DNA from: a virus
IMG/VR virus record: IMGVR_UViG_3300033463_000182
Location: 1 to 53,902 of that record
Length of the DNA: 53,902 nt
Reading direction: 5' to 3' (one strand)
Shown: piece after piece, positions 16,021 through 53,902 of the stretch
How positions within the stretch are numbered: position 1 is the first letter of the stretch
How the letters are laid out: every line of letters starts with the position of its first letter
Translations under genes and position numbers: made by a program
The notes under the pieces: generated by a model
Databases searched by the model: none
What the model was told of the DNA's origin: nothing
The model's input: only the letters and a program-made list of their open reading frames with translations

Positions 16021-17883
16021 TTATATCTGGATTCCCCGGCTCACCACGCGCTTGTTTTTGCGCTTGGTTTCTTCCTGCCGGGTGATGATCTTTTTCGGTT
16101 CTTCGATGCCGTTCACAAGGCGCTCCAGCTCGTCAAAGCGCCAGTTGAAATATCGGTACGCGGCCCGCGCGTAGTTGCGGCAGTCCAACGGTTCGTTGCG
16201 TTCATAGAATTGCTCCCATACCGCCACGCCCTGCCCGCCGCGCCGGTGTATTTCCAGCCTTTCGGAAATCAGGCCCTTAAAATACTCCATGTCGTAGCCC
16301 GCCCGGTATTCGATGGGGAAGTGCATATAGTTTGGCCCCGGCTCCTCCACGGCGGCTTCATACATGATCCCGGCCTTTCCTTCGTCAACGCCCAGCATGA
16401 ATTTAGCGCCCTCGCCCTGGCCGCGCTTCATGGGCCTGCACTCCGGCTTTCCTTCGCCCTTTTCGCCCTTGATAGGCCATATCCGCTTGCTGGCGCGCTT
16501 CGCGCACTCCTTGTAGATGGGGGTGGTGAAGTGGCCGCCGGAGTCAATGAACGTCGCAAGGATGCGCATTTTCATTCCGTTGGCGAGCTTCCATTCCCGA
16601 TCCAGCAGGGCGTCAACCTCCTGCCATACGCCGGGGGCGTCGGCCCGTCCGGGGATCACGCCACGGTTGATGCCCCAGCTCTGCCCGTTCCGATCCCAGC
16701 CCACAACCTCGTATTCCAGGCGGTTGTCCTGCGTGTCCATGCCCATTGTCAGAAGCAAAACGCCCGTCGGCACTTCCGCGTCGTAATGCTCCCGGCGCTT
16801 GTACAGCGCTTCGTCAAGGCCGCTGTTGGTATGTATTTCCCATACCTCGCCCAAAATCGTGTTGTAGAAGGTTTGCAGCTTCGTTGCGTCCTTGTGGGCC
16901 TTGAGGAATTTCCACACAATATCCTTCCAGTCGCTCCAGGGTGACATAAAGGCGTTCAGCCGGAAGGATCGGATGCCGTTTTCAAGGGCTTTTGGATTCT
17001 TGCTGACCCACTTTGCGGGCAGGCGCTTACATTCGTATTCCCCAATGTCGCGCTTGCACGTCGGGCACCGCCATGTGACCACCTTAACGTGATAGTCCTC
17101 GTCGCCGCCCTCGTTCACATAGTCCTCTTTTTCAAAGTGGATGTCCGCAAACCGAATGTAGTTGTAGGTATGGCAATGCGGGCACTCCGTATGCCATTCC
17201 TCTTGCGTGCCGTTCATGTAATCCGTTTCAATCTTCGATTTCCCCTTTATGGTCGGTGTGCTGGTCTTTACGATCTTGCGGTTATGCCGGAAGGTTTCTG
17301 TACGCCTTTCGGCCAATTCCTGCGGGTCGCCCTCGGTGCCTGCGCTGGCAGGGAAGCGGTCTGTTTCGTCCATGAAGATATACCGTACCGGCTTACTGGA
17401 AAGGTCGGCGGGGGAGTTGGCCCCGATAATGGCAAGGCTCCCGCCTGGAAAGGTTTTCATGGTGATGGTGTTTGCCGCGTCCCGGCTCCGCGCTTTGAAA
17501 ACCTTGTCCCGCAGCGTCGGGCATGCCTGGATCATCGGCGCGATACGCCGTTTGGAATAATCCTCGGCCACCTTGTCCGTCGGCTGGATATACAGCATCG
17601 GGCCTGGGTCGTTGTCGATGGCGCAGCCCATCATATTCAGTTCGATTTCGCTTTTGCCCACCTGTGCGCTCGCCATAATCACGATCTGCCAGATGCCCGG
17701 TTGGGTAAAGCTGTCCATGATCTCCCGCTGATAGGGGGCGCGGTCAGTCCGCCACGCGCCCGGTTCCGCGCTGCTCTCGGACACCAGCACACGGTTTGCG
17801 TCCGCCCATTCCGACACGGTTTGCTGTGCCGGTGGCCGGAACATGGCATAGGTGTATCGGGCGAGTTCGGCAATGGCGCTCAT
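16021..17883 (-). CDS. terL: Terminase large subunit, GpA family
   Basis: 620 aa. VSEWADANRVL...WRTDRAPYQREIMD...MASAQVGKSE (Walker A-like)...IFMDETDRF. Confidence 0.9.
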   Translation of the reverse strand: MSAIAELARYTYAMFRPPAQQTVSEWADANRVLVSESSAEPGAWRTDRAPYQREIMDSFTQPGIWQIVIMASAQVGKSEIELNMMGCAIDNDPGPMLYIQPTDKVAEDYSKRRIAPMIQACPTLRDKVFKARSRDAANTITMKTFPGGSLAIIGANSPADLSSKPVRYIFMDETDRFPASAGTEGDPQELAERRTETFRHNRKIVKTSTPTIKGKSKIETDYMNGTQEEWHTECPHCHTYNYIRFADIHFEKEDYVNEGGDEDYHVKVVTWRCPTCKRDIGEYECKRLPAKWVSKNPKALENGIRSFRLNAFMSPWSDWKDIVWKFLKAHKDATKLQTFYNTILGEVWEIHTNSGLDEALYKRREHYDAEVPTGVLLLTMGMDTQDNRLEYEVVGWDRNGQSWGINRGVIPGRADAPGVWQEVDALLDREWKLANGMKMRILATFIDSGGHFTTPIYKECAKRASKRIWPIKGEKGEGKPECRPMKRGQGEGAKFMLGVDEGKAGIMYEAAVEEPGPNYMHFPIEYRAGYDMEYFKGLISERLEIHRRGGQGVAVWEQFYERNEPLDCRNYARAAYRYFNWRFDELERLVNGIEEPKKIITRQEETKRKNKRVVSRGIQI

Positions 17884-17886
17884 CCG

Positions 17887-18411
17887 TTACACCTCCTCGT
17901 CGCCCTCCTCCTCGCTTTCGTCGCTTTCTTCCGTCGCCGCGTAGGTCGGCAGGGGAGTGTCCGCCACGGCTTCAAGCGCCTTGCGAATCTCCTTGTCGAT
18001 CATGTCTGCGATAACCTCCGTGTTATCCAGCATCCGCAGCATGGGAGCCAGCTTGCTCGGAAGGTGCAAAAGGTTTTGTGTCACGGTGTTGGCGATGTCG
18101 CCCCACAGCCTTTTCACGTCCTGCACGTCAATAAGCTGCCCGCGCATCCGCGCCACTTCAAGCTCGGTCTTTTGTGTCTTGACCACTTCATGCCGCGCCT
18201 TTACCGTGTCCAGGTCGTCCACGTCGGCGGTTTCGTTATTCACGTTGTAGTCAACCCACCGCTGCACAAAAATAGCGAGGTCGTACTTGCCGCCCTCGCC
18301 CTCTACAAACAGTTTCTTTTCCTGCGGCTGATCCCGGTCTATGTCGTACAGCCGCCGGTATGTATAGCCTGCGATGGTCGCAAGCTCTTTTTTCGTCATT
18401 GATATGCCCAT
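17887..18411 (-). CDS. terS: Terminase small subunit (N-terminal HTH, acidic tail)
   Basis: 174 aa directly upstream of terL; MTKKELATIAGYTYRRLYDI HTH-like start. Confidence 0.7.
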   Translation of the reverse strand: MGISMTKKELATIAGYTYRRLYDIDRDQPQEKKLFVEGEGGKYDLAIFVQRWVDYNVNNETADVDDLDTVKARHEVVKTQKTELEVARMRGQLIDVQDVKRLWGDIANTVTQNLLHLPSKLAPMLRMLDNTEVIADMIDKEIRKALEAVADTPLPTYAATEESDESEEEGDEEV

Positions 18412-24741: not shown

Positions 24742-25142
24742 TTTACGCCCTCCTCGTTTGCCTTTACGTCCGCTTCCATCGCCGCCAGCAGGGAAGGATT
24801 CAGCAGACGTTTGAACACAAGCGGGCACTCAAAGCACCGTTCCTTGTCGCACTTTTCGTAAAAGTCCTCCTCGGTGCATTGCCATTTGGCGAACAGCTCC
24901 CCGCAGATGTCCGAAACAAATTCCTGCACTTCATCGTCCGAATACTCGCTTTCGCTGCTCACGTCCAGATAGGCGTCCAGGATCGCGTCGCAATGCAGAT
25001 GGCGCTTGAGGTCGTTAAATTCCCCGTCGTACTTCTGCTTTTCGTGGATGTACTCGCAACCGGGCAAGATCGCTTTCCCGCAGATATGGCACCTGTGGCG
25101 CTTCCGCGCCCGCGTCTGCTTCTTCTCGAAAAATTCAAGCAT
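24738..25142 (-). CDS. Hypothetical zinc-ribbon protein
   Basis: Start refined to MLEFFEKK... behind AAGGAGCCAACACC; CHICGK...C motifs. Confidence 0.45.
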   Translation of the reverse strand: MLEFFEKKQTRARKRHRCHICGKAILPGCEYIHEKQKYDGEFNDLKRHLHCDAILDAYLDVSSESEYSDDEVQEFVSDICGELFAKWQCTEEDFYEKCDKERCFECPLVFKRLLNPSLLAAMEADVKANEEGVK

Positions 25143-25159: not shown

Positions 25160-25558
25160 TCAAAATGGTGTGTCCCCGTCGTCAACCGGCATATAGCCGT
25201 CGTCCGGCGGCGCGGCTTCCGCTTCCTGTCCGCCCTCCGGCTTCCCGGACAGGTATTCGATTTCCTCCGGGCGCTGGATTTCAAGGCTCACCTTCGGCTG
25301 CCCGTCGCTGCCCATGTAAGCCCGCCCCGTAACGGGGCCGGTCACGGCCACCTTGCGGCCCTTCGCCAGATACTTCATGGCGTTGTCCGCCTGCTTTTCC
25401 CAGCAACTCACCCGGAAATACTCGGTGATCTTCTGTCCCCGCACAACGCGGTTGACTGCCACCGTGAAATTGCATACGGTTTTCGCGCCGTTCTGTGTGT
25501 TCGCCACGCGGCTTTCCGGGTTGTGCGTCAGGTTTCCGATAATCGTCAATCGGTTCAT
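25160..25558 (-). CDS. ssb: Single-stranded DNA-binding protein
   Basis: OB-fold N-terminus MNRLTIIGNLTHNPE...; acidic C-terminal tip DDGDTPF. Confidence 0.9.
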   Translation of the reverse strand: MNRLTIIGNLTHNPESRVANTQNGAKTVCNFTVAVNRVVRGQKITEYFRVSCWEKQADNAMKYLAKGRKVAVTGPVTGRAYMGSDGQPKVSLEIQRPEEIEYLSGKPEGGQEAEAAPPDDGYMPVDDGDTPF

Positions 25559-26127
25559 TCGTCCTCTCCTTCCTCCAGCCGATAGGCTGCTCCCTGCAAG
25601 GCTTCCGGCGGCATCATCAGCCCCCGGATCATGTCGCCTCCCGCCAGCGCGCCGCGCCTTTCGGCGCTGTCCACCATGGCGGAAAGGGTCAATCCGTTCT
25701 CGTTCCCGCGCTCTCCCCGCGCAAGGTTCCCGGTCTTTGCCAGGATGTTGTCGGCTACTGCCCGTTGTGTGGCCCGGTGCCGGTCAATCCTTGCCTGTTC
25801 CTCCGGCGTCCGCCGCAGGCTCGGATCGTCTGACCGTGCGCAAAACTCGTCCATTTCTTCCGCGCTGCGGATTTCAAACAGCATAGAGCTTGCTTCGTGA
25901 TGCAGTTTTCCGGCCTGTTCCCGGATTTCCGCCACCGTAGGAAGCCACTTGCTCGTCGAAAGAAGCTGCATAAAGGCCAGCATCACAATATCCGTGGGGA
26001 TGTCCTGCAAGGCAAAGGCCCAGCTCTGCACCAGCATGAGCTTTTCCTGGTTGGTCATGGTCTTAAAGGCGTAGCTGTAATTGGCTTTCGCCAGGGCCAG
26101 CAGTTTGTTGGCGTCCTCCGTCGTCAC
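25555..26127 (-). CDS. Helicase-loader-like protein (G39P-like N-terminal domain)
   Basis: ANYSYAFKTMTNQEKLMLVQSWAFALQDIPTDIV... resembles the SPP1 G39P family. GTG start at 26125-26127 overlaps the upstream stop (GTGA). Confidence 0.5.
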   Translation of the reverse strand: MTTEDANKLLALAKANYSYAFKTMTNQEKLMLVQSWAFALQDIPTDIVMLAFMQLLSTSKWLPTVAEIREQAGKLHHEASSMLFEIRSAEEMDEFCARSDDPSLRRTPEEQARIDRHRATQRAVADNILAKTGNLARGERGNENGLTLSAMVDSAERRGALAGGDMIRGLMMPPEALQGAAYRLEEGEDE

Positions 26128-26822
26128 CTTCTCACCCCCGGATCGTCCCACGGTAAGGGCACCAGTCCTTCCGTGCCGGTAAAGGTTCCGTTGAGATCAA
26201 CCAGCCCTTCGCACGCCTGCGCGCGCGCTGCCATCCTCCTTTTTGCTTCTGCCGCTATGCTTGTGTCTGTTTTTGCCGTACCCCTGTTTGTATTTATATA
26301 CATACCAGGAGAGGAAGGAGGATATAAGGGATCGCCTGCATTACCGGCGGCATTTTTGCTCCCGATACGGGGCGCGTCGCCTGCATGACCGCTTACAGCA
26401 TCGCCTACACCATCGCCTACACTACCGACTACACTACCGGCGGCGTTTTTGCTCCCGATAGGCGGGTTATCGCCTACACTACCGGGTACAATTTTGTACC
26501 CGATAACAGACAGATAATTGATTTTGTAATAGGGGTCATGCCGTTTCCCGTCCCCTTTCTGAAAATCAATCAATCCGATCTGTTTCAGCCGGTTCCGGCT
26601 GTTCCTGATCGCCCGTTCCTCCAAACCAGCCCAATCATCAAGCTCGGAATTACTCACCTGGAAAAAGTCGTCGGGCCATTCGTGATTTTCGGCTCCCATT
26701 GCCAGCCTGTTTGCACAGTAGAACAATCCCAGCCAGAAAATGCGGTCATAGCTTGTCAGTCTGTTTCGGCGTGCGTATTCCATGAACAGGTTGATTTGTT
26801 GAACGAAATTAACTTGGCTCAT
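26124..26822 (-). CDS. Replisome organizer / replication initiator (DnaD-like N-terminal winged helix)
   Basis: 232 aa. N-terminus FMEYARRNRLTSYDRIFWLGLFYCANRL.... The central part is encoded by DNA iterons. Confidence 0.6.
   Translation of the reverse strand: MSQVNFVQQINLFMEYARRNRLTSYDRIFWLGLFYCANRLAMGAENHEWPDDFFQVSNSELDDWAGLEERAIRNSRNRLKQIGLIDFQKGDGKRHDPYYKINYLSVIGYKIVPGSVGDNPPIGSKNAAGSVVGSVGDGVGDAVSGHAGDAPRIGSKNAAGNAGDPLYPPSSPGMYINTNRGTAKTDTSIAAEAKRRMAARAQACEGLVDLNGTFTGTEGLVPLPWDDPGVRR
26343..26501. repeat. Iteron cluster plus palindrome inside the initiator gene (candidate ori)
   Basis: ACCGGCGGC(A/G)TTTTTGCTCCCGATA at 26343 and 26436. TCGCCTACAC at 26401, 26413 and 26470. GGGTACAATTTTGTACCC at 26484-26501. 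Confidence 0.5.
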
Positions 26823-32197: not shown

Positions 32198-32226
32198 TTG
32201 ACCTGGGAGGGGTAATATCCTATAAT
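32198..32226 (+). promoter_or_regulatory. Rightward (repressor/lysogeny) promoter
   Basis: TTGACC (32198-32203), 17 nt, TATAAT (32221-32226). Confidence 0.65.
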
Positions 32227-32248
32227 GGAATGGACAGGAGGGAAAACC

Positions 32249-32641
32249 ATGACCTTTTTAGAAAAATTGGACTGGCTGATGGAGCGTGAAAAGCTGAACA
32301 AGCACACGCTGGCCCAGCAAAGCGGCGTCCCGTACACAACGATTGTCGGCCTGTATGAGCGCGGCCCGGAAAACGCGCGCCTTTCTACGGTCAACAAGCT
32401 ATGTGCTTTCTTCGGCGTCCCTCTGGACTACCTGGCGCTGGATGAATACGAAAGGCCGGAGGATTTTACCCCAAACGGAAACACCGTCGCGCTGACATGC
32501 GCGACGGATCAGGAAACGGAGCTTGTTTCTCTGTTTCGGGGGTTATCTGCCGCCGCCCGTGAAACGGTGCTTACAACCGTGCGCGGCTTCGCCGGTAATC
32601 CTTCCATGCAAAAAGAAAGTACAAAATCCGAAACGGCATAA
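32249..32641 (+). CDS. cI-like XRE-family repressor (no S24 peptidase domain)
   Basis: MTFLEKLDWLMEREKLNKHTLAQQSGVPYTTIVGLYERG HTH. The ATG at 32249 lies downstream of the -10, with GGAGGG upstream. Confidence 0.75.
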   Translation: MTFLEKLDWLMEREKLNKHTLAQQSGVPYTTIVGLYERGPENARLSTVNKLCAFFGVPLDYLALDEYERPEDFTPNGNTVALTCATDQETELVSLFRGLSAAARETVLTTVRGFAGNPSMQKESTKSETA

Positions 32642-32678: not shown

Positions 32679-33260
32679 ATGAAGAAACTAATTGCCCTGT
32701 TCCTCGTCGCCCTGATGATCCCTTGCGTCGCCGTGGCGGAATCCACGAACACGCGCGGCCTGGTGGAATTTCTTGAATTGTATTCCTCGCGCTTTGCGGC
32801 CTACGCCTGCCAGAATGGCCTTGAATTTGACGCGAGCACCTATTCGGCCCTTCCGCCGTATAAATCCGGCGACTACCTTGTGTTTGAATCCAGCGCCGGG
32901 AGCATAGGTGTATATCCCGGATCGTATGACATTCACGACGTAACCATGACCTTCTACTCCATGACCGACGACGACGCGGACAATGAGCTTTTCGCCACGA
33001 GCTGCATCATGGCGATTTCCGCCCTGGAATTTGATGCTTCTTATGAAAAAGGCCCATCCCTTGCAAGGAAGTCCGCGACGGACGATGCCGTGCGGATTTT
33101 CGATGAAGAAATAGGCGGCAGGCTGGAAGAATCGCTCGCGCAGGCCATTGAAACAGGAAAGAGGGTCTATGTCTGCTCCTGCAATTATGATTATTACATC
33201 GACTACTTTGTTTCCGGCGCGCACGAATTTGTATATCTGATTGCGGAAGAACGCAAATAA
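32679..33260 (+). CDS. Signal-peptide protein in the lysogeny module (moron candidate)
   Basis: MKKLIALFLVALMIPCVAVAES... signal-like N-terminus; lies between the repressor and the integrase. The start could instead be 32655. Confidence 0.5.
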   Translation: MKKLIALFLVALMIPCVAVAESTNTRGLVEFLELYSSRFAAYACQNGLEFDASTYSALPPYKSGDYLVFESSAGSIGVYPGSYDIHDVTMTFYSMTDDDADNELFATSCIMAISALEFDASYEKGPSLARKSATDDAVRIFDEEIGGRLEESLAQAIETGKRVYVCSCNYDYYIDYFVSGAHEFVYLIAEERK

Positions 33261-33372
33261 GAAATGCCCGCCCCGGTTTCCCAGGACGGGCCGCAAAATC
33301 AGCCAACACCACTTGTCCGATTTGCTATTTTATTATAGCGCGGAGAACGTGAAAAGTCAAGGAGTTTCGCGC

Positions 33373-34947
33373 ATGAAAGCTGTAATTTACGCACGCTATT
33401 CTTCCCACGGCCAGACGGAGCAATCCATCGAAGGACAGCTCCGCGATAATTACGCCTGGGCCAAGCAGCAGGGGATCACCGTCATAGCGGAATACATAGA
33501 CAGGGCCTTGACCGGCACCAAGGATCAGCGCCCGGATTTTCAGCGCATGATCGAGGACGCGGCCAAGCGTCAGTTTGAAATGGTTATCGTCTGGAAGCTG
33601 GACAGGTTTGCCCGCAACCGTTACGACAGCGCGATCTACAAGGCCAAGCTCAAGAAATACGGCGTCAAGGTGGTGTCCGTCAAGGAGAACATCACCGACA
33701 GCCCGGAGGGCATCATCCTGGAAGGGCTGCTGGAAAGCATGGCGGAGTATTACAGCGCCAACCTGTCACAGAATATCCGGCGCGGCCAGCGTGAGAGCAT
33801 GGCGAAGGGAACATACTGCGGCGGCCCTGTACCCTACGGCTACAAGGTGGCGAATAAGAAGCTCGTCATTGACGACAAGGCCGCAGAAGTGATCCGCTAT
33901 GTGTTTGACCAGTACGCCCAGGGCGTCCCCAAGAAAGAGATCATCGACGAATTGAACCGGCGCGGCGTCCGTGGAAAGACTGGCAAGCCGCTTTCCATCA
34001 CGGCATTTCAGCGCGCCTTGCCGAATCCTGCCTATGTCGGGCGCTTCACCTATAAGGGTGAAGTGATCCCCGGCCTTTCCGAGCGCATCATAGACGACGA
34101 CACTTTCCAGAAAGTGCAGGAGCGCTTGAAGCTCACCGCCCGCGCGCCTGCTGCGAACAAGGCAAAGGTGGAATATCTCTTGCAGGGGAAAGCCTACTGC
34201 GGCCATTGCGGTGCGCCCATGATCGGGGAATCTGGCCGGTCACGGAACGGGGAAACGTACAATTACTATGCTTGCGCGGACAAAAAGAAGAAGCATACCT
34301 GTAAGAAGAAGAACGAGCGCAAGGATTTTATCGAATGGTATATTGTCGAACAGACGATGCAGTATATCTTGACGCCCGCCCGCGCTGCCCGCGTCGCAAA
34401 GGCCGTCGTGCAGGAGTACAAAAAAGAGTTTTCCGATAGCCGCGTGGACGATCTGGACAAAGCCTTGAAGCAGATAGACCGCGAGCTGGACAAGCTGGTG
34501 GACGCCCTGGTGGACAGCCCCAAGGTAGCGCACAAGAAAATCTACGCCCGCATGGAAACGCTGGAAGCGCAGAAAGCGGAAATGGAAACAGACCTTGCCC
34601 GCCTGCGCATCGCCCAGGAAATCCAGCTCACCGAAACAGAAGTGCGCGCATGGCTAAAGAAATTCTGTACCGGCGATCCGCTGGATGAGGAATTTCGCAA
34701 GCGCATCATCGACGTGTTTATCAATGCCGTCTATCTCTACGACGATAAGCTCATTACCTTCTACAACATACGCGGCGGCAAACAGGTTTCCTATATCGAC
34801 CTTATCAATTCCGCCGACCTTCCCGCCCCGGAGTGTTCGGATTTGAAAGCGTATGCTCCACCAAACGCATCCAAATCCGAACCGCAATACGTCTTTGTAA
34901 ATGGCGTGTTCGGCTGCATCTTCCATAGGAAGAAGGACGAGGATTGA
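33373..34947 (+). CDS. Large serine recombinase (integrase)
   Basis: MKAVIYARYSSHGQ...SIEGQ resolvase catalytic domain, recombinase domain, a zinc-ribbon region (CGHCG...C..C) and a coiled coil. AAGGAG 9 nt upstream of ATG 33373. Confidence 0.9.
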   Translation: MKAVIYARYSSHGQTEQSIEGQLRDNYAWAKQQGITVIAEYIDRALTGTKDQRPDFQRMIEDAAKRQFEMVIVWKLDRFARNRYDSAIYKAKLKKYGVKVVSVKENITDSPEGIILEGLLESMAEYYSANLSQNIRRGQRESMAKGTYCGGPVPYGYKVANKKLVIDDKAAEVIRYVFDQYAQGVPKKEIIDELNRRGVRGKTGKPLSITAFQRALPNPAYVGRFTYKGEVIPGLSERIIDDDTFQKVQERLKLTARAPAANKAKVEYLLQGKAYCGHCGAPMIGESGRSRNGETYNYYACADKKKKHTCKKKNERKDFIEWYIVEQTMQYILTPARAARVAKAVVQEYKKEFSDSRVDDLDKALKQIDRELDKLVDALVDSPKVAHKKIYARMETLEAQKAEMETDLARLRIAQEIQLTETEVRAWLKKFCTGDPLDEEFRKRIIDVFINAVYLYDDKLITFYNIRGGKQVSYIDLINSADLPAPECSDLKAYAPPNASKSEPQYVFVNGVFGCIFHRKKDED

Positions 34948-34951
34948 CAGC

Positions 34952-34981
34952 ACAGCGCCGGGTGAAATATCCCGGCGCTGT
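34952..34981 (+). terminator. Perfect 11-bp hairpin after the integrase gene
   Basis: acagcgccggg-tgaaatat-cccggcgctgt; the downstream T tract is weak. Confidence 0.5.
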
Positions 34982-35079
34982 TCCTGTATTCAGAGGTGAA
35001 ATCAGGCTCACCGTCAATTTCATTCCCGCATCAGGCATCAGGGCAACCGCCGCCCTGGTGCCTATTTTTGCCCCCTTCT

Positions 35080-35950
35080 AATTATCCGCGCGCGCGTGCG
35101 CGAGGGGCCTTTTCTGGCCTGCCCAGGTGAATGAAATTCATAAAAAAAATAAAAAAATTAGCCAAATGGTGGGCTCCCAGCGCCCGCGTAGGAGAAAAAT
35201 CACGCGCGCAGTACCTACACGCGCAAGCGGGCGGGCGCGCACACGGGCGGGCGGGCGCGAGCGCGCGACAGGCGCGTGTGCGGGGGCGCGAGGGCGCGCG
35301 CGTGAGGGCGCGCGTAGGGGCGCGCGTGAGGGCGCGGGGGCGTGAGGCGCGGACGCGGACGCGCAAGGGCGCAGGGGCGCGGGCGGATGCGGGCAGGCGT
35401 GGCGCGTTGCGCGGTAAAAGCAACCCCGGAGGGGTTGCATCCAGGGCGCGCGGGGCCGCGTGATGGCGCGGGCCGCCGGACGCGGGCGGCCAGGGGACGC
35501 AACGCGGGAACGCGGGCGGACGGGCCGAAACATAAAACGCGCGGCGCGGGGCGGACGGGGCCGGGACGGGGCAGGCCGTTCCCGCGTCCAGGATCGCCGC
35601 CGGACGGATCGCCCGCCGGGACGGTTTACAATTCCGGCCAGCGTCCAGGCAGCAGCCAGCTCCCCGCACGCGCGCCCGCGCAGGCCGCCGGGGCGACGTG
35701 TCCAGGGATCGCCGCCGGGGACGTTGCCAGGGATGCAGGCAGCAGCCCCCGCGCGCGTGGAGGCGTCCAGGGGCCGCCGGGGGCCGGATGCCAGGACGCC
35801 GCCGGGGGCCTATAACCGTTTGCGCCATTCGGGGCGGATCGTTCACCGTCGGGGCCGTCCATGTTTCCGCCGGACGGATCGCCGCCCGCGTCCAGGCGGG
35901 GCGGGCTGGATGCGCTCACGCATACACGCGGGAACATAAAACGCGCGTGC
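35080..35950. repeat. Extreme-GC non-coding repeat block
   Basis: 104 of 120 nt are G+C in 35221-35340 (counted). Contains (CG)n, GGGC repeats, about 12-bp tandem repeats and five GYGTCCAGG iterons. All six frames give Arg/Pro/Ala/Gly junk. Confidence 0.85.
35129..35160. other. AT-only island with an 11-nt palindrome inside the GC block
   Basis: ATGAAATTCAT (35131-35141) followed by A8-T-A7-TTA. Confidence 0.8.
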
Positions 35951-36009
35951 GCCCGTTACGGCCCGAAAAATTTTTTTACCCCCGTAGGGGGTACATGCCC
36001 CGAAAAACA

Positions 36010-36036
36010 GGCCCCTTCCCGCCGGGGCCGTTTTTT
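36010..36036 (+). terminator. Intrinsic terminator upstream of promoter P1
   Basis: GGCCCC-ttcccgcc-GGGGCC-g-TTTTTT. Confidence 0.65.
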
Positions 36037-36117
36037 GTGCTATGCTTTTCACGTCGGCGGGAAACACCGCCGGACGGCCCCGAAAAAATTTCCCGAAAAA
36101 AATTTTTTGAAAAGGGG

Positions 36118-36146
36118 TTGACAAACGGGGTACACCGTGATAATAT
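36118..36146 (+). promoter_or_regulatory. Promoter P1 of the accessory array
   Basis: TTGACA, 17 nt (aACGGGGTACACCGtga), TAATAT with an upstream TG; A/T-tract UP-like region 36080-36113. Confidence 0.7.
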
Positions 36147-36215
36147 GGGCACCGTGGACGGGGTACACCGAACACAACACAAGGCGAAAAAATCATTTTG
36201 AAGGAGGCCAACACC

Positions 36216-37112
36216 ATGAAAGACCTGTACACCGAAATTGCCAACGGCATCATTGAGCAGCTGGAAAAGGGGATCATCCCCTGGAAAAAGCCCTGGACGG
36301 GCGTTAATTCTGGCGCTATCTCCCACGCAACCGGCCGCGCCTATTCCCTGCTGAATCAGATGCTCCTCAACCGCCCCGGCGAATACATCACGTTCAATCA
36401 GTGCAAGCAGGAGGGCGGCATGGTCAAGAAGGGCGCGAAAAGTAAAATCGTCGTGTTCTGGAAAGTGCTCCAGCGTGAAAAGAAGGACGCCGCCGGGAAC
36501 GTGGTCACGAACGCCGACGGAAAGCCGGTCATTGAGGGGCTGCCCGTGTTGCGGTATTTCCAGGTGTTCCATATCGACGATTGCGACGGGATCGCGCCGA
36601 AATGGGATAAAAAGCTGCCCGCCGTTGCATCCCCCGACGAACACGCCGAAAGCATCTTGACTGATTATGTGCGCCGTGAGGGCATCCGCCTTGAGAACGT
36701 GATCGGGGATCGGGCGTATTATTCCCCGTCCAGGGATTATATTTGCCTGCCCCTGATGGAGCAATTCGATAGCACCGGCGAATATTACGGCACCGCTTTC
36801 CATGAGGCGACGCATAGCACCGGCCATGTAACGCGGCTGAATCGTTTTGAAAGCGGGATCGCCGCCGCCGCTTTCGGCTCCGAATCGTACAGCAAAGAGG
36901 AGCTTGTCGCGGAAATCGGCTCCGCCTGCATCCTGCACGAAATCGGCATGGAAACGCCGTCCACGTTCAAAAATTCCGCCGCCTATATTCAGTCCTGGCT
37001 CCGCGTTTTGAAGGACGACAAACGGATGATTATTTCCGCCGCCGCCCGCGCCGAAAAGGCTGTAAAACTGATTCTCAACATCACCGACGAAAAGCAGGCG
37101 GACGGGGAATAA
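36216..37112 (+). CDS. ardC: ArdC-type antirestriction protein (ssDNA-binding N-domain + zincin metalloprotease domain)
   Basis: IIEQLEKGIIPWKKPWTG...ITFNQCKQEGGMVKKGAK (ArdC-N) and YYGTAFHEATHSTGH...YSKEELVAEIG (HExxH peptidase domain). Confidence 0.85.
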   Translation: MKDLYTEIANGIIEQLEKGIIPWKKPWTGVNSGAISHATGRAYSLLNQMLLNRPGEYITFNQCKQEGGMVKKGAKSKIVVFWKVLQREKKDAAGNVVTNADGKPVIEGLPVLRYFQVFHIDDCDGIAPKWDKKLPAVASPDEHAESILTDYVRREGIRLENVIGDRAYYSPSRDYICLPLMEQFDSTGEYYGTAFHEATHSTGHVTRLNRFESGIAAAAFGSESYSKEELVAEIGSACILHEIGMETPSTFKNSAAYIQSWLRVLKDDKRMIISAAARAEKAVKLILNITDEKQADGE

Positions 37113-46943: not shown

Positions 46944-47036
46944 TTACCTCCCATTGGCATAGATGAGCGCCGCAAGGATCATGCCAAAAAGGGCCGATGC
47001 GGGAACAATCCAAACCAGGTGCCATGCAGAAATCAT
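46944..47036 (-). CDS. 30-aa single-TM peptide (not in the ORF track)
   Basis: GGAGGTG RBS. The ATG overlaps the RT stop (ATGA). MISAWHLVWIVPASALFGMILAALIYANGR. Confidence 0.35.
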   Translation of the reverse strand: MISAWHLVWIVPASALFGMILAALIYANGR

Positions 47037-48400
47037 AAATAAATCACCTCCGCGCTTTCCAGCCAGTCGCCATAGTGCATCCGTATGTGTTCTTCAAGGC
47101 TTCCGCCCCATTGAGGATCTTTTGGGTCGATCCCGCGCACCGAAAGCACGCGGATGTCAAAGTCCATTCGTCCCGTCAGGTCGTCGTAGGCCGGAACAGC
47201 CTCGCCCGGTGTCAGCCAAATATCCACAAGGCCGTCCTCCGCCTCGACGATTCTATAAAAATGCCGCCTGTTCCCCGGCGGCTGATCGCTCGCGTTATTC
47301 ATGTTTTCGCACCTTTGCAGTACAAAGTGTTCCTCGATCCAGCGCAGCATATTGTAGCCGTTACAATGCTTGCACATGCCGATGTAGCAGATCACGCTTT
47401 CCATCGCCGCGTCATAGCTGATCGCCCCGTAGGCGAAAGCGCTCATAACGTGTTTCAGCGCCCGCTTGATATGCCGCGTTGTTTTCTTCCTCATGCGGAT
47501 GCCGTGTGGCGTCAGCAGATACCCCACAAACTCCACCGGGGCCGTCGCTTTCTGGATGCGGCTTTTGGGGCTGATGTCAAGCGCCAGCTCGTCCCGCAGG
47601 AAAGCGCTCACGGTGGCGAATACCCGCCGCGCTTCTTCCTTGCCTTTCACAAGGATGCAGAAATCGTCCATGTAGCGCACATAGAAATGGAGCCGCAGGA
47701 CGTGTTTGCAGTATTTGTCCAGCTTGTCCAGGAACAGGTTGGCCGTTTCCTGGCTGGTCAGGTTGCCGATGGGCATACCTACATCGTACAGCCGCAGGGC
47801 GCGCGGGCAATCGTCCGGCCTCATTCCCGGCGGCAGGCCAAAGGGCACGTCCGGGTTGTTGATGATAACGCCCATGAGCCAGCGATACCATTGATCGTCG
47901 CTGGTTTCGTCGTAGCTCTGCAACACCTTCCCGTGATCCACGCGGTAAAAGTATTTGCTGATGTCGCCCTTTATCAGATACCAGTCGTCCGCGTCCGGCT
48001 TCCGGCTGATAAGCTGCTGCCAGCTTTGCAGGCACTCCGCCGCCGCCAGCGTGCCCTTGTCGCGCCTGCATCCGTAGCTGTGTTCGATATAGCGCTTGTC
48101 AAGATAGGGGTTGATCTGCCGGTAGATGGCCCATTGCACCACGCGATCCCGGAAGCCCAGCGCCATGACCAGGCGCGGCTTCGGATAGCGTACATAAAAT
48201 TCTCTGTACGGGCCGACCTTATAGGTCATTTCACGTAATTCCTTCTGTATCTGGAGCAGATTTTCGCCCAGGTTGAAGGTGAAATCCAAAACCTCGTTGC
48301 GATACCGCTTGCTCTTTGCGGCGTCACGGTATGCGCCCATCAGGTTTTCAAAGTCGCAGATGCGGTCTTTCAGATTGTGCAGCCCTTCCAAAATGTTCAC
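47033..48400 (-). CDS. DGR reverse transcriptase with an extra C-terminal domain of roughly 100 aa
   Basis: IGNLTSQ (DGR-type motif 4) and YVRYMDD (motif 5); lies downstream of TR. Confidence 0.9.
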   Translation of the reverse strand: MNILEGLHNLKDRICDFENLMGAYRDAAKSKRYRNEVLDFTFNLGENLLQIQKELREMTYKVGPYREFYVRYPKPRLVMALGFRDRVVQWAIYRQINPYLDKRYIEHSYGCRRDKGTLAAAECLQSWQQLISRKPDADDWYLIKGDISKYFYRVDHGKVLQSYDETSDDQWYRWLMGVIINNPDVPFGLPPGMRPDDCPRALRLYDVGMPIGNLTSQETANLFLDKLDKYCKHVLRLHFYVRYMDDFCILVKGKEEARRVFATVSAFLRDELALDISPKSRIQKATAPVEFVGYLLTPHGIRMRKKTTRHIKRALKHVMSAFAYGAISYDAAMESVICYIGMCKHCNGYNMLRWIEEHFVLQRCENMNNASDQPPGNRRHFYRIVEAEDGLVDIWLTPGEAVPAYDDLTGRMDFDIRVLSVRGIDPKDPQWGGSLEEHIRMHYGDWLESAEVIYL

Positions 48401-48449
48401 CCCGCCCTGCGTGGGCCGCGCGTGATGTTTCCATGCGGCTTTGACTGTA

Positions 48450-48473
48450 ATACCCTAAAAGGCTTTAGGGTAT
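48450..48473 (-). other. Perfect 10-bp hairpin in the TR-RT spacer
   Basis: ataccctaaa-aggc-tttagggtat. Confidence 0.7.
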
Positions 48474-48664
48474 GCTGCTGACAGCCTCGGCCTTTCGTCC
48501 TCCCGGACGCTTCGCGGCGATTCCCGCGCCGCCTTTTCCCCCGGAGCGTTCTTGCCGGAGCAGCACGGGATTTTTGTTTAGGCGGTTTTCACCGCCACGG
48601 AAACGCACCCCTCCCATCAGAAGGATGGCCGCTGATTCGTGATCTCGCGGCGCGTGATGTATGC

Positions 48665-48785
48665 TGGGAGCGCGGGCGGCAGCCATAGTTGTTGTTCGCA
48701 TTGCCGCGCTCGTTGTTGGAGTTGACATACCCCAAGCCCGCGTTGGAGCCGTTGTTGTAGTTGCCGCCGCGACGCGGGAAGCGCT
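48665..48785 (-). repeat. DGR template repeat (TR)
   Basis: 121 nt, collinear with VR at an offset of 710 nt. All 18-19 mismatches are at TR adenines (T on the + strand). Sense translation: RGGNYNNGSNAGLGYVNSNNERGNANNNYGCRPRS. Confidence 0.9.
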
Positions 48786-48816
48786 AACGAACGCATGGCG
48801 ATCCAGGCCGTCCAAT

Positions 48817-49239
48817 TCACGGCACGTTCCCTTTATAGTCGCTGCTTTTCCGGCCAGATACGCTATTGATCCAGCCGCCGATTAAGGCCCCGATTTCCGC
48901 GATCTTTTCAGACCACACGCCGTAACTTTGATCGGTGAGCAGACGCCTTTCCTGTCCGTTCTTTGCGGTGAATACGGTCTTGTTGGCCTGCTGGATCAGC
49001 ACGTCCAATACGGCCTTGCTGGTGTCCAGGTCGCCCAGCGTGCTTTTGTTCATGTACTTGAGCCGCGCTTTCGTCGCCAGCCGGAGCATGGTGTACATTT
49101 CCTGCATGATGTCCACGCCCAGGCTCTTTTGATGGAAGTACGGCCATCTTTGCACAATGGGCCGCGCCCAGCAGATCATGTCGTCGATCTTCTGGCAGCA
49201 CGGCCCCGGATTCTTTGCGTCGTACCTAAATTCTGGCAT
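48817..49239 (-). CDS. avd: Accessory variability determinant (Avd)
   Basis: 140 aa helical basic protein. ...IAEIGALIGGWINSV matches the Avd C-terminal helix pattern. Lies between the target gene and TR. Confidence 0.8.
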   Translation of the reverse strand: MPEFRYDAKNPGPCCQKIDDMICWARPIVQRWPYFHQKSLGVDIMQEMYTMLRLATKARLKYMNKSTLGDLDTSKAVLDVLIQQANKTVFTAKNGQERRLLTDQSYGVWSEKIAEIGALIGGWINSVSGRKSSDYKGNVP

Positions 49240-49264
49240 ACCGTTTCACCTTATCAGAACATCA

Positions 49265-49302
49265 TCACGCGCGCGTGACCGATTCTATTCACGCGCGCGT
49301 GA
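49265..49302. promoter_or_regulatory. Two identical 14-bp palindromes TCACGCGCGCGTGA upstream of avd
   Basis: 49265-49278 and 49289-49302, 24 bp centre to centre. Confidence 0.6.
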
Positions 49303-49314
49303 TGGAGAGGGACG

Positions 49315-49339
49315 GGGGCGCGCCCTACCGGGCGGCCCC
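49315..49339 (-). other. GC hairpin downstream of VR (DGR target-recognition element candidate)
   Basis: 10 bp with one bulge and a 4-nt loop (tacc on the + strand), 35 nt beyond the VR end. Confidence 0.6.
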
Positions 49340-49370
49340 ATCAGGGATTCAGTTTTCAGTCGTCAGGGGT

Positions 49371-50585
49371 TCAGAGGGAGCGCGGGCGGCAGCCAAAGGG
49401 GTAGACCGCACCGCCGCGCTCGTCGCTGGAGTAGACAAACCCCAAGCCCGCGGCGGAGCCGCTGATGAAGTAGCCGCCGCGACGCGGGAAGCGCTCGCCC
49501 GCCGTGAAGTTGACGTAGTAATAGCCGGGGGTGTCGTCGTTTGCGTCGGTCTTGATAAGGCCCAGCTCCTTGACGATGCTCGGCACATATGGAAGGTTCG
49601 TGCTGTTCACGGCAACCGTGCTGAAGCTCTCGCCCTTGCTGCCAACGGTCAGGTCGTCGCATTGCGTGTCCAGGGTAATATGCCCGTTCAGCCAGTTCCA
49701 ATGCAGCGTGCCGGTGGTGCCGGGGGCAACCAGCGTGTAGCCGTCGTCGCCCGCGTTGGGCAGGATCGCTTTCCACGCGGCGGAAGAAGCGGACAGGTCG
49801 GCGTCCGGGTCGGCGGCGTTGTTGTTCTCCAGGATTTGCAGCTCGCAATCGACGATCCGATAGCCGTACTGCTGTTCCAAGGAAGAACCGATGATGTCCG
49901 CCAGCAGCGCGGGATCGCTGCCAAGATACCAGTCCAGCGGGCCGCTGCCGTTCAGCGTCCGATAGCCGGTCTGGTGCGCGGCGTCCGGCGTGCCGTCGTT
50001 GCTGATGCCGCCCACATACTTGCCGCGCTCCCAATAGGTCGGGGCGATGTCAGGCCGCAGCTCCGCCGCGCTGGTGTGCGCTTGCAGGGCCTTGTAGATA
50101 TAGCCGTTGTAGGCGCGCTCGTTGTTCACCGAAATGCTCTTGCCGGTTTCCCATGCCGTCGCGTCCTGGTGCGCCTGCCCCCACGCGGTATTGCCGTGCG
50201 GCTTCCAGCCCATCTTCTGCGCCAGCAGCTTGATAAAGCCGTAGTCCGCACAGGTCATGCCGGTAATACCGCTGCCCGCCAGCTTCATGCGGGACAGGCA
50301 TTGATCCGCGCCCAGGGAGCGAATCGGGTTGATGTTCGGCAGGGACAGGATCGCGCCGCCGGAAACGCCGTTGTCGCCGCCCTTGTACTTGCCCAGCAGA
50401 ATATAATCCTGCTCCACGCCGTTGATGATAAAGGCGGGGTGGGTGTGGTTCGGCAGGCCGGAAACCAGGTCAGAGGATTTCATCTTCGGGAATTTCACGA
50501 AGATACCGGCCACGTTGCCGTTGGCGTCGTACTTCACGATGTTGCCGTACTTCTTCGCCAGAAATTCAAGCGGGCTGTTATTCAT
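49371..50585 (-). CDS. DGR target protein, putative receptor-binding tail-fibre protein with a C-type-lectin-fold VR
   Basis: 404 aa, last gene of the fibre cluster; the VR occupies the C-terminal 40 codons. Confidence 0.8.
   Translation of the reverse strand: MNNSPLEFLAKKYGNIVKYDANGNVAGIFVKFPKMKSSDLVSGLPNHTHPAFIINGVEQDYILLGKYKGGDNGVSGGAILSLPNINPIRSLGADQCLSRMKLAGSGITGMTCADYGFIKLLAQKMGWKPHGNTAWGQAHQDATAWETGKSISVNNERAYNGYIYKALQAHTSAAELRPDIAPTYWERGKYVGGISNDGTPDAAHQTGYRTLNGSGPLDWYLGSDPALLADIIGSSLEQQYGYRIVDCELQILENNNAADPDADLSASSAAWKAILPNAGDDGYTLVAPGTTGTLHWNWLNGHITLDTQCDDLTVGSKGESFSTVAVNSTNLPYVPSIVKELGLIKTDANDDTPGYYYVNFTAGERFPRRGGYFISGSAAGLGFVYSSDERGGAVYPFGCRPRSL
49375..49495 (-). repeat. DGR variable repeat (VR), 3' end of the target gene
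   Basis: See TR. Encodes RGGYFISGSAAGLGFVYSSDERGGAVYPFGCRPRSL-stop. The invariant GC-rich 3' end (49376-49394) is IMH-like. Confidence 0.9.
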
Positions 50586-53255: not shown

Positions 53256-53902
53256 TTAGGAAGAAATCGCCGTCAGCGTAATGGTGCCCTTGCACCGTTC
53301 GTTGGCGTTGATCTCCGTGTATTCCACCGTCCCGCTGTCGAAATTGCTCCCCGTGTCCCAAATAACGCGCGTCGCGCCTGCCTGGTAGATGGCCGCCATC
53401 AGCCGGTCAGGGTTAAAAGCCCGCCCGATGGTGTTGTCCTGCCATTCCTGGTAGTCGCTCACCGCCGCCGCAATCGCCGCGCTGGTGGCGCTGCTGTTGT
53501 CGCTGGCGTATTTCACGTTCAGCGTATAGGGTACGTTGGTCGCCTGATAAACGCTTACGTTGTCCGTCAGCGGGCGCACGTCCTCCGCAGAAAGCGCGTC
53601 CAGCACGCTTTGAAGCAGCGCCGCAGCGCCCGTCTGTGTGGATAGGATCAGATAGATTGCCACGTTGCCCGCACTGGCGTTGATGGCCCTGGCGTCCAGG
53701 ATCACGCTGCTTACAGCCTTTGCCGCCGCCTCGTACTGCCTTGCCGGGCCGGTGGAAACGCTCGCAAGGCCGTATTCCCGGATGCGCTCGCGGTAGGTTT
53801 CGTCGTCCTCCGCCTCGTTTCCGCCCGTGGCGTCCGTCGCCACAATGATGCTGTTCACGCCCGCGTTGGTAATGGCAAGGCCCATCTGTGTGCCTGTCAG
53901 CA
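53256..53902 (-). CDS. Baseplate J-like protein, C-terminal part (continues from 1-581 through the circular junction)
   Basis: GLAITNAGVNSIIVATDATGGNEAEDDETYRERIRE... is typical of the gpJ family; the ORF runs off the window end. Confidence 0.8.
   Translation of the reverse strand, partial: LTGTQMGLAITNAGVNSIIVATDATGGNEAEDDETYRERIREYGLASVSTGPARQYEAAAKAVSSVILDARAINASAGNVAIYLILSTQTGAAALLQSVLDALSAEDVRPLTDNVSVYQATNVPYTLNVKYASDNSSATSAAIAAAVSDYQEWQDNTIGRAFNPDRLMAAIYQAGATRVIWDTGSNFDSGTVEYTEINANERCKGTITLTAISS
53776..53902. repeat. Terminal overlap copy 2 (identical to 1-127)
   Basis: Verbatim identity read directly. Confidence 0.95.

Follow-up and report, generated by a model that had tools for sequence, protein, structure and literature searches.

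Comparison with its relatives places a cos site in the span between the integrase gene (int) and the accessory operon of the phage described here, where terminase would cut the concatemer at two positions 11 nt apart, 35173/35174 and 35184/35185. Because a GC-rich, repeat-structured block of 0.6–1 kb lies immediately past the cut, this block would form the left tip of the packaged (virion) chromosome. The block would act as DNA and not as a gene, in the termination of packaging or in the entry and survival of the chromosome end; such a role in packaging or entry is favoured and as yet unproven.

The window analysed is the entire IMG/VR virus record IMGVR_UViG_3300033463_000182 (53,902 bp). The direct terminal repeat given for this record is in fact an assembly overlap of 127 nt that falls within coding DNA, which makes the record a circular assembly; it represents the free form of the phage. 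The phage is a temperate, lambda-terminase-type myophage of rumen Oscillospiraceae. Protein scans identified a tail sheath, a tape-measure protein and a baseplate, together with two DNA methyltransferases and a diversity-generating retroelement, and the portal protein matches the Pfam family Phage_portal_2 (lambda family). Integrated relatives are found in metagenome-assembled genomes (MAGs) of rumen and gut Clostridia and Oscillospiraceae. Compared by blastn with 50,697 phage records, the region gave no match. The features on which the argument rests are collected in Table 1.

Table 1. Genes and DNA elements of the window that bear on the cos site and the adjoining block (coordinates of the window).
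Feature	Position	Strand	Basis or remarks
Large terminase, lambda GpA-type	16021–17883	minus	Pfam GpA_ATPase (2e-82), GpA_nuclease (6e-77)
Small terminase, TerS	17887–18411		match to phrog_57
Replication genes resembling SPP1 G38P/G39P	25555–26822	minus	protein scans
cI-like repressor	32225–32641		protein scans
Large serine integrase (int)	33241–34947		protein scans
attP of the large serine integrase	34836–34885	plus	prophage junctions; last ~37 codons of int
Two terminator hairpins 3' of int	34952–34981, 35033–35063 (T-run)	plus	inverted repeat I18; terminator scan
Int-side cos flank (predicted right end of virion DNA)	35075–35173		conserved in relatives
Predicted cosN, 11-nt cohesive end CTCCCAGCGCC	35174–35184		predicted nicks 35173/35174, 35184/35185; relatives' ends
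Block-side cos flank (predicted left end of virion DNA)	35185–35230		invariant CAGTACCT at 35209–35216 within a variable palindrome
G-rich degenerate tandem repeats	35227–35410	plus	include 12-bp unit GGCGCGCGTGAG, 35271–35336 (Tandem Repeats Finder)
Hairpin module CGGTAAAA-[ GCAACCCC GGA GGGGTTGC ]-ATCCAGG	35412–35445	plus	hairpin 35420–35438
Direct repeat AACATAAAACGCGCG	35529 and 35933 (35529–35947)	plus	
Repeat field, five GYGTCCAGG + GGATCGCC(G/C)CCGG units, single orientation	35584–35896	plus	
Conserved hairpin TACCCCCGTAGGGGGTA	35977–35993		inner block edge
Two-way terminator with T-runs	36010–36029		inner block edge
Promoter P1 (TTGACA-17-TAATAT with TG) of the ArdC-led operon	36118–36146	plus	
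ArdC-type anti-restriction gene	36198–37112	plus	first gene of the accessory operon; Pfam, PHROGs

The contigs of many relatives stop just past int, and for this reason the position was examined as a cos site. The linear record G006 (55,131 bp, rated 100% complete) carries an 11-nt terminal redundancy homologous to 35174–35184: both of its ends read CTCACAGCGCC, the record ending ...GGGCTCACAGCGCC and starting CTCACAGCGCCCGC.... Eight further distinct contigs (L005, which equals L287, L010, L023, L198, L218, L219, L231 and L253), coming from at least six different metagenomes, end at the exact homologous base; L185 ends 1 nt beyond this shared base, and the end of G015, at the position homologous to 35173, corresponds to the other nick. 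The window itself being a circular assembly, its cut is placed from these relatives and from two contigs with the same 11-mer, one of which, L219, also bears the window's flanks. The large terminase has both the ATPase and the GpA nuclease domains. Taken together, the 11-nt redundancy, the shared contig ends and the GpA-type terminase are the marks of a cos site whose cohesive end is 11 nt long, the fixed ends of the lambda type being seen here in silico. Two other readings of the contig ends at about 35165–35190 were considered and discarded: prophage junctions rule out att cores, and the exact common end base together with the 11-nt redundancy indicates physical ends, not GC drop-out.

The sequence around the cut is strongly conserved, over about 100 bp towards int and about 50 bp towards the block. 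The int-side flank contains a box, CGCGCGCGCGTGCGCG (35087–35102), a palindrome, ATGAAATTCAT (35131–35141), and two phased A-tracts (35142–35157); it is 72–97% conserved in L002, L005, L006, L007, L009, L010, L023, L111 and L115, and is visibly retained also in G006, G011 and several metagenome contigs. Its likeness to cosB of lambda makes it a candidate region for terminase binding and bending. The preliminary description had recorded the box as an alternating pyrimidine–purine run prone to form Z-DNA, and had recorded an AT island (35129–35160) made of the palindrome followed by A8-T-A7. Both are present; the run is conserved as a component of the cos flank, for which reason the Z-DNA idea was set aside, and the island and its flanks are parts of the cos site, which had been missed. 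The block-side flank is retained in L009, L111, G006, G011, L205, L269 and L270.

The arrangement resembles the cosQ–cosN–cosB organization of lambda in its GpA-type large terminase and lambda-family portal, in its fixed ends with a short cohesive overhang (predicted at 11 nt, compared with 12 in lambda), and in a conserved flank beside the cut, in which boxes recur and a bend element is predicted. It differs in that the bend would come from intrinsic A-tracts and no known IHF site, and in that lambda has no counterpart of a hypervariable GC-rich block of 0.6–1 kb abutting the cut. It differs also in the location of cos between int and the accessory operon, 17 kb from the terminase genes, a distance that is unusual for Nu1/GpA systems and that we count against the cos reading.

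The attachment site lies outside the block. An att region had been among the functions first proposed for the repeat-structured DNA, and this proposal fell when the junctions of integrated relatives mapped to the 3' end of int, about 200 bp upstream of the block. The arms of attP form a perfect 11-bp inverted repeat, GTTCGGATTTG (34836–34846) and CAAATCCGAAC (34875–34885), enclosing 28 bp that resemble the 3' end of a tRNA (GCTCCACCA); the first arm is common, inside the 3' end of int, to all the integrase relatives. In the integrated relatives, similarity ends right past this first arm and host DNA follows, namely tRNA-Ala (L107), tRNA-Ser (L113, L114), tRNA-Arg (L116) or a GCTCCACCA end plus a terminator (L108, L119). 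Moreover, attP and attR could be read directly from the free form L111 and the same-type prophage L114. In the prophage G003, about 51 kb of a single contig separate int from ArdC, and this contig breaks within the GC block upstream of ArdC; thus in the lysogen the block stands at the end opposite int.

The block begins about 45 bp past the cut; at its far end come a conserved hairpin, a two-way terminator and promoter P1, the last flanked by two operator-like sites (ACGGGGTACACCG) and about 945 bp from the chromosome end. The preliminary description of the block as non-coding, repeat-structured, cis-acting DNA adjoining the integrase proved correct, and the features that it listed were found again in place, save for one adjustment to a direct repeat. 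The recounted G+C in 35221–35340 is 104 of 120. The composition is indeed unlike that of the rest of the genome, with 76.8% G+C over 35190–35960 and 58% for the genome; the richest 770-nt stretch outside the block reaches 66.6%, versus 77% for the best one inside it. The non-coding nature is borne out by the indels that separate it from the homologous block of L111, 14 of 18 of which are not multiples of three, and no Pfam match was found for the two block open reading frames (ORFs) tested (the longest, 254 aa, minus strand; 159 aa, plus strand). The five GGG tracts are present at 35229–35255; the suggestion that they form a G-quadruplex was dropped, since they are broken in L111, the sole relative aligned base by base there. 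Tandem Repeats Finder resolved the units of about 12 bp into 5.5 copies of GGCGCGCGTGAG, and the five GYGTCCAGG repeats stand at 35584, 35641, 35698, 35763 and 35888. The direct repeat that brackets them is real; its extent is corrected to 15 exact nucleotides, and its second copy falls within a segment (35898–35947) that is 92% conserved with L111. Composition and repeats alike go beyond what chance would give. The shorter GTCCAGG occurs five times in 771 bp of block versus 0.45 times per kb elsewhere (both strands), and the strand bias is complete, with nine CCAGG versus no CCTGG and five GGATCG versus no CGATCC. These repeat numbers rest on this one assembly, near-identical assemblies ending at 35215 (L105) and about 35284 (L184).

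Eight phages share the layout, which comprises the cos flanks, one to three hairpin modules, repeats in one orientation, a terminator and a promoter: the phage of the window, L111, L244, L009 (record G007), G006, L205, L269 and G011. In the seven cores measured (all but that of G006), the GC-rich core spans 620–1000 bp with 66–80% G+C, versus 50–58% for the genome pieces, and five of them are G-rich on the top strand. Within this common frame the sequence turns over quickly. The window and L111 are 72% identical over the 846 nt of their homologous blocks, conservation being confined to islands between which identity falls to 21–44%; the indels include sizes of 21–118 bp, and L111 is without 36 bp of the G-rich array, which is exactly three 12-bp units. 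TCCAGG and GATCG keep a single orientation in five phages (the window, L111, L009, G006 and L244), with counts in four phages of 6–11 TCCAGG versus 0 CCTGGA and 5–10 GATCG versus 0 CGATC. The two motifs are few or replaced in L205, L269 and G011, and wholly replaced in the last; the close relative L205 has two copies of each, with other G-rich repeats instead, in a longer and different G-rich array, such that TCCAGG ranges from 2 copies there to 11 in L111. Such differences in motif and copy number, even among close relatives, speak against a precise protein-binding array and are compatible with a neutral, slippage-driven spacer.

Among the conserved islands the hairpin module stands out. It has the form CG(A/G)TAARR-[8–9 bp stem, 3–5 nt loop]-WWCCWSG and occurs in one to three copies per fully read cos block. 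When the flanks alone were used as the query, all 13 distinct module copies in cos blocks had a perfect stem of 8–9 bp, and the chance matches outside cos blocks had none. Four of the eight stem pairs show compensatory changes, and none of 500 shuffles reached the observed covariation score. At the inner block edge, the hairpin TACCCCCGTAGGGGGTA differs in its letters in L111 and G011 and still pairs. Selection appears to act on composition, on the one-way orientation of the repeats and on the hairpin module, and not on exact sequence.

Three readings in which the block would serve replication, partition or transcription fared less well than a role in packaging or entry. The repeats and the AT island, placed in one intergenic region and with the repeats in one direction, had been taken to suggest an origin; here an initiator would bind the GTCCAGG and GATCG repeats and melt the AT island, as an iteron-type origin or copy-control locus. 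SPP1, which has G38P/G39P-like genes, offers a parallel, its second replication origin being far from gene 38. However, some 400 bp separate the repeats from the only AT island, which lies on the far side of the cos cut and does not qualify as an unwinding element; no DnaA box with one mismatch or fewer was found in 34900–36200; the repeat number varies from 2 to 11 across relatives; and the repeats are not linked to the replication organiser, G006 retaining both TCCAGG and GATCG with no detectable homologue of that gene. TerS, by comparison, is 76–89% conserved in G006, G007 and G008, relatives that share the repeat motifs. A compact array of 12-bp iterons inside the organiser gene (26331–26490), the classic place for such an origin, is probably the better candidate, and an origin in the block is accordingly unlikely, the initiator-binding model being one to which we give little weight. 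An iteron look-alike at 24973 falls within coding DNA and was treated as chance. The suggestion of a partition site did not hold either, as no ParA/ParB- or ParM/ParR-type gene appeared in Pfam and PHROGs scans of the 47 ORFs, several small ones of which are unannotated. Least probable of all is a structured non-coding RNA transcribed across the block and bounded by terminator-like hairpins. It would account for the terminator-like sites at both edges (35226–35200 on the minus strand, 36010–36029 in both directions) and for the hairpin with compensatory changes; covariation, however, is limited to that one local hairpin, the only promoter-like site inside the block or at its edges is P1, which points away, and the best Rfam match (E = 0.43) falls below the gathering score. 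Folds of six segments were no better than those of shuffles (z-scores −0.6 to −1.8), large indels and motif turnover run through the block, and the T-run after the minus-strand hairpin is lost in G006 and G011, a loss that also led us to reject the hairpin modules as minus-strand terminators.

A role in packaging or entry can be given a mechanistic form by analogy with lambda. Terminase would bind the int-side flank through its GC box, palindrome and phased A-tracts, as at cosB, and packaging would start there, int side first; on that premise the block would be the last part packaged and the first to reach the cell, preceding the anti-restriction operon. It could then serve as a non-coding leader at the chromosome end, either in packaging termination or in DNA entry and the survival of the end. 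An attempt to settle the packaging direction through phage Lagaffe was abandoned, the record of that phage beginning at terS and not at a mapped end. The serious rival is a neutral, slippage-driven spacer, in which GC-rich DNA beside cos has expanded, e.g. by repeated end resection and repair or by replication slippage, with no function of its own and with selection only on the cos flanks and the promoter region. The fast turnover of repeat type and number, the 21–118 bp indels relative to L111, the different repeats of L205 and G011 and the poorly conserved stretches between islands are what such a process would leave, and in phage FP_Taranis, considered below, the matching end of the record is without a GC-rich block. 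Yet a block of 0.6–1 kb and high G+C recurs in the same place in eight phages whose integrases are about 62% identical and whose capsids are size-limited, its repeats keep one orientation, and it contains a hairpin module under structural selection; we therefore regard neutral expansion as considerably less probable than a role in packaging or entry.

Slightly less probable again is a more specific version of the entry role, in which the block would be an end-defence or entry device. Its one-way repeats and hairpin would hold off or reprogramme a host end-processing nuclease or another DNA-end sensor, the oriented repeats being Chi-like or stalling or modulating an AddAB/RecBCD-type enzyme or another defence that senses DNA ends, for as long as it takes the cos ends to anneal and the neighbouring ArdC-led anti-restriction operon to be expressed. 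The block is terminal, in four phages its repeats all share one direction with respect to the end, and the anti-restriction operon starts about 945 bp from that end, which recalls Ocr, the anti-restriction product encoded at the left end of T7. The 12-bp unit includes GCGCGTG, the Lactococcus Chi sequence; this heptamer is, however, not in the G006 block, and a Lactococcus-type Chi was discarded as a candidate. Furthermore, a G-rich host Chi, if like the known ones, would be on the strand opposite to the one required by an enzyme that enters from this end, and the identity of the first-entering end itself comes from analogy.

Several known systems share part of this organization. In T7-type ends, short repeat arrays lie on either side of a terminal repeat, and early promoters and gene 0.3/ocr come next; these ends are alike in a repeat-filled non-coding first kilobase, strong early promoters and an anti-restriction first gene; they differ in having direct terminal repeats and not cohesive ends, a different terminase, podovirus entry and arrays that are not GC-extreme. 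In the P1 pac system, clusters of GATC-containing hexamers flank the terminase cut and place it under the control of Dam methylation. The likeness lies in short GATC-bearing repeat arrays near a packaging cut, in a phage that here encodes its own DNA methyltransferases; P1 headful cleavage, however, occurs within about 160 bp, whereas the GATCG repeats lie 400–700 bp from the predicted cos and their number is not conserved. Iteron and centromere arrays (the lambda origin in gene O, SPP1 oriL in gene 38, P1 incA and F sopC) are similar as direct repeats of one orientation and as non-coding DNA; in contrast to them, the block has no linked initiator or Par gene, its repeats are unstable in sequence and number, and separate classic iterons are found inside the replication-organiser gene. 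The cultured Faecalibacterium phage FP_Taranis (Taranisvirus) is syntenic with the window and its GpA terminase is 48% identical, the shared order being serine integrase, repressor, early/replication genes, GpA terminase, myovirus tail, diversity-generating retroelement, lysis genes and accessory array. Its record opens with the 3' end of int; it differs in the absence of a GC-rich block at the accessory-gene end of the record, a comparison that is only suggestive, no cos annotation having been seen in the record.

These observations give a physical map, with chromosome ends, attachment site and probable origin, for a group of phages that is widespread in rumen and gut Clostridia. The cos flanks offer a usable annotation signature for setting genome starts in this clade, and the block is a conserved yet fast-changing non-coding element at the chromosome tip, the role of which is now testable. 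Should the block prove to protect or guide the DNA end as it enters, phage counter-defence would gain a layer at the level of DNA beside the protein-based ArdC array, through an element of a kind not described for cos phages. The predicted cut and the block also account for the breaks that assemblies of these phages show here: nine contigs or more terminate at the cos cut, several others end inside the block, and the L025 contig begins in a poly-G artefact inside its own block.

The ends of the record are not the physical ends of the genome. The 'direct terminal repeat' of the record (1-127 / 53776-53902) is a 127-nt overlap within coding DNA and reflects an assembler circle, while the physical ends lie at 35174/35184, the cos cut. 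Because attP is located inside the serine-integrase gene (Table), the C-terminus of the integrase is exchanged upon integration. The attP of the window (GCTCCACCA) mimics a tRNA 3' end, and relatives are found integrated at tRNA-Ser, tRNA-Ala and tRNA-Arg genes.

Features of the window discussed here
Feature	Position	Strand	Remark
12-bp repeat array, about 7 copies, ATCGCCTACAC-like	26331-26490		within the G38P/DnaD-like replication-organiser gene
attP	34836-34885		within the final ~37 codons of the serine-integrase gene (33241-34947)
Hairpin TACCCCCGTAGGGGGTA, then two-way terminator	35977-36036		immediately upstream of P1, the ArdC-operon promoter
Diversity-generating retroelement	47033-50585
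Reverse transcriptase of the retroelement	47033-48400	(-)
Likely target gene of the retroelement	49371-50585	(-)

The 12-bp repeats form two clusters with 93 bp between them. As a candidate origin of replication, the array would belong to the lambda-O or SPP1-oriL kind. At the inner edge of the GC-rich non-coding block beside the cos cut, the hairpin and the two-way terminator are both conserved in relatives with compensating changes, and this hairpin shares a CCCC-GTA-GGGG core with the hairpin module of the block itself.

Several observations concern the block and the cos flank in relatives. One relative's contig (L025:1-60) begins within its own GC block, and it opens on a long stretch of poly-G, as sequencing artefacts of the no-signal type typically do; this contig start shows that the block is difficult to sequence and assemble. 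In a more distant relative (L168, record G011; ~900-1210 and 150-370 on the minus strand), the repeats of the block (GAGGCCGAGC...) and the stretch of the first downstream gene that codes for Ala/Glu/Pro-rich repeats are one and the same DNA, which suggests exchange between coding repeats and the non-coding block. Two human gut contigs (L269 and L173) carry, directly past the cos cut, a long perfect palindrome, CCCGGAACACAGTACC-T6-GGTACTGTGTTCCGGG, within which the invariant CAGTACC is located; the window has only one half of it.

Like the window, Faecalibacterium phage Taranis, a relative in culture, has such a diversity-generating retroelement. Each of the hexamers GCCGGC and CCGCGG is present just once in the whole window (53 kb, 58% G+C), suggesting that restriction sites are avoided.
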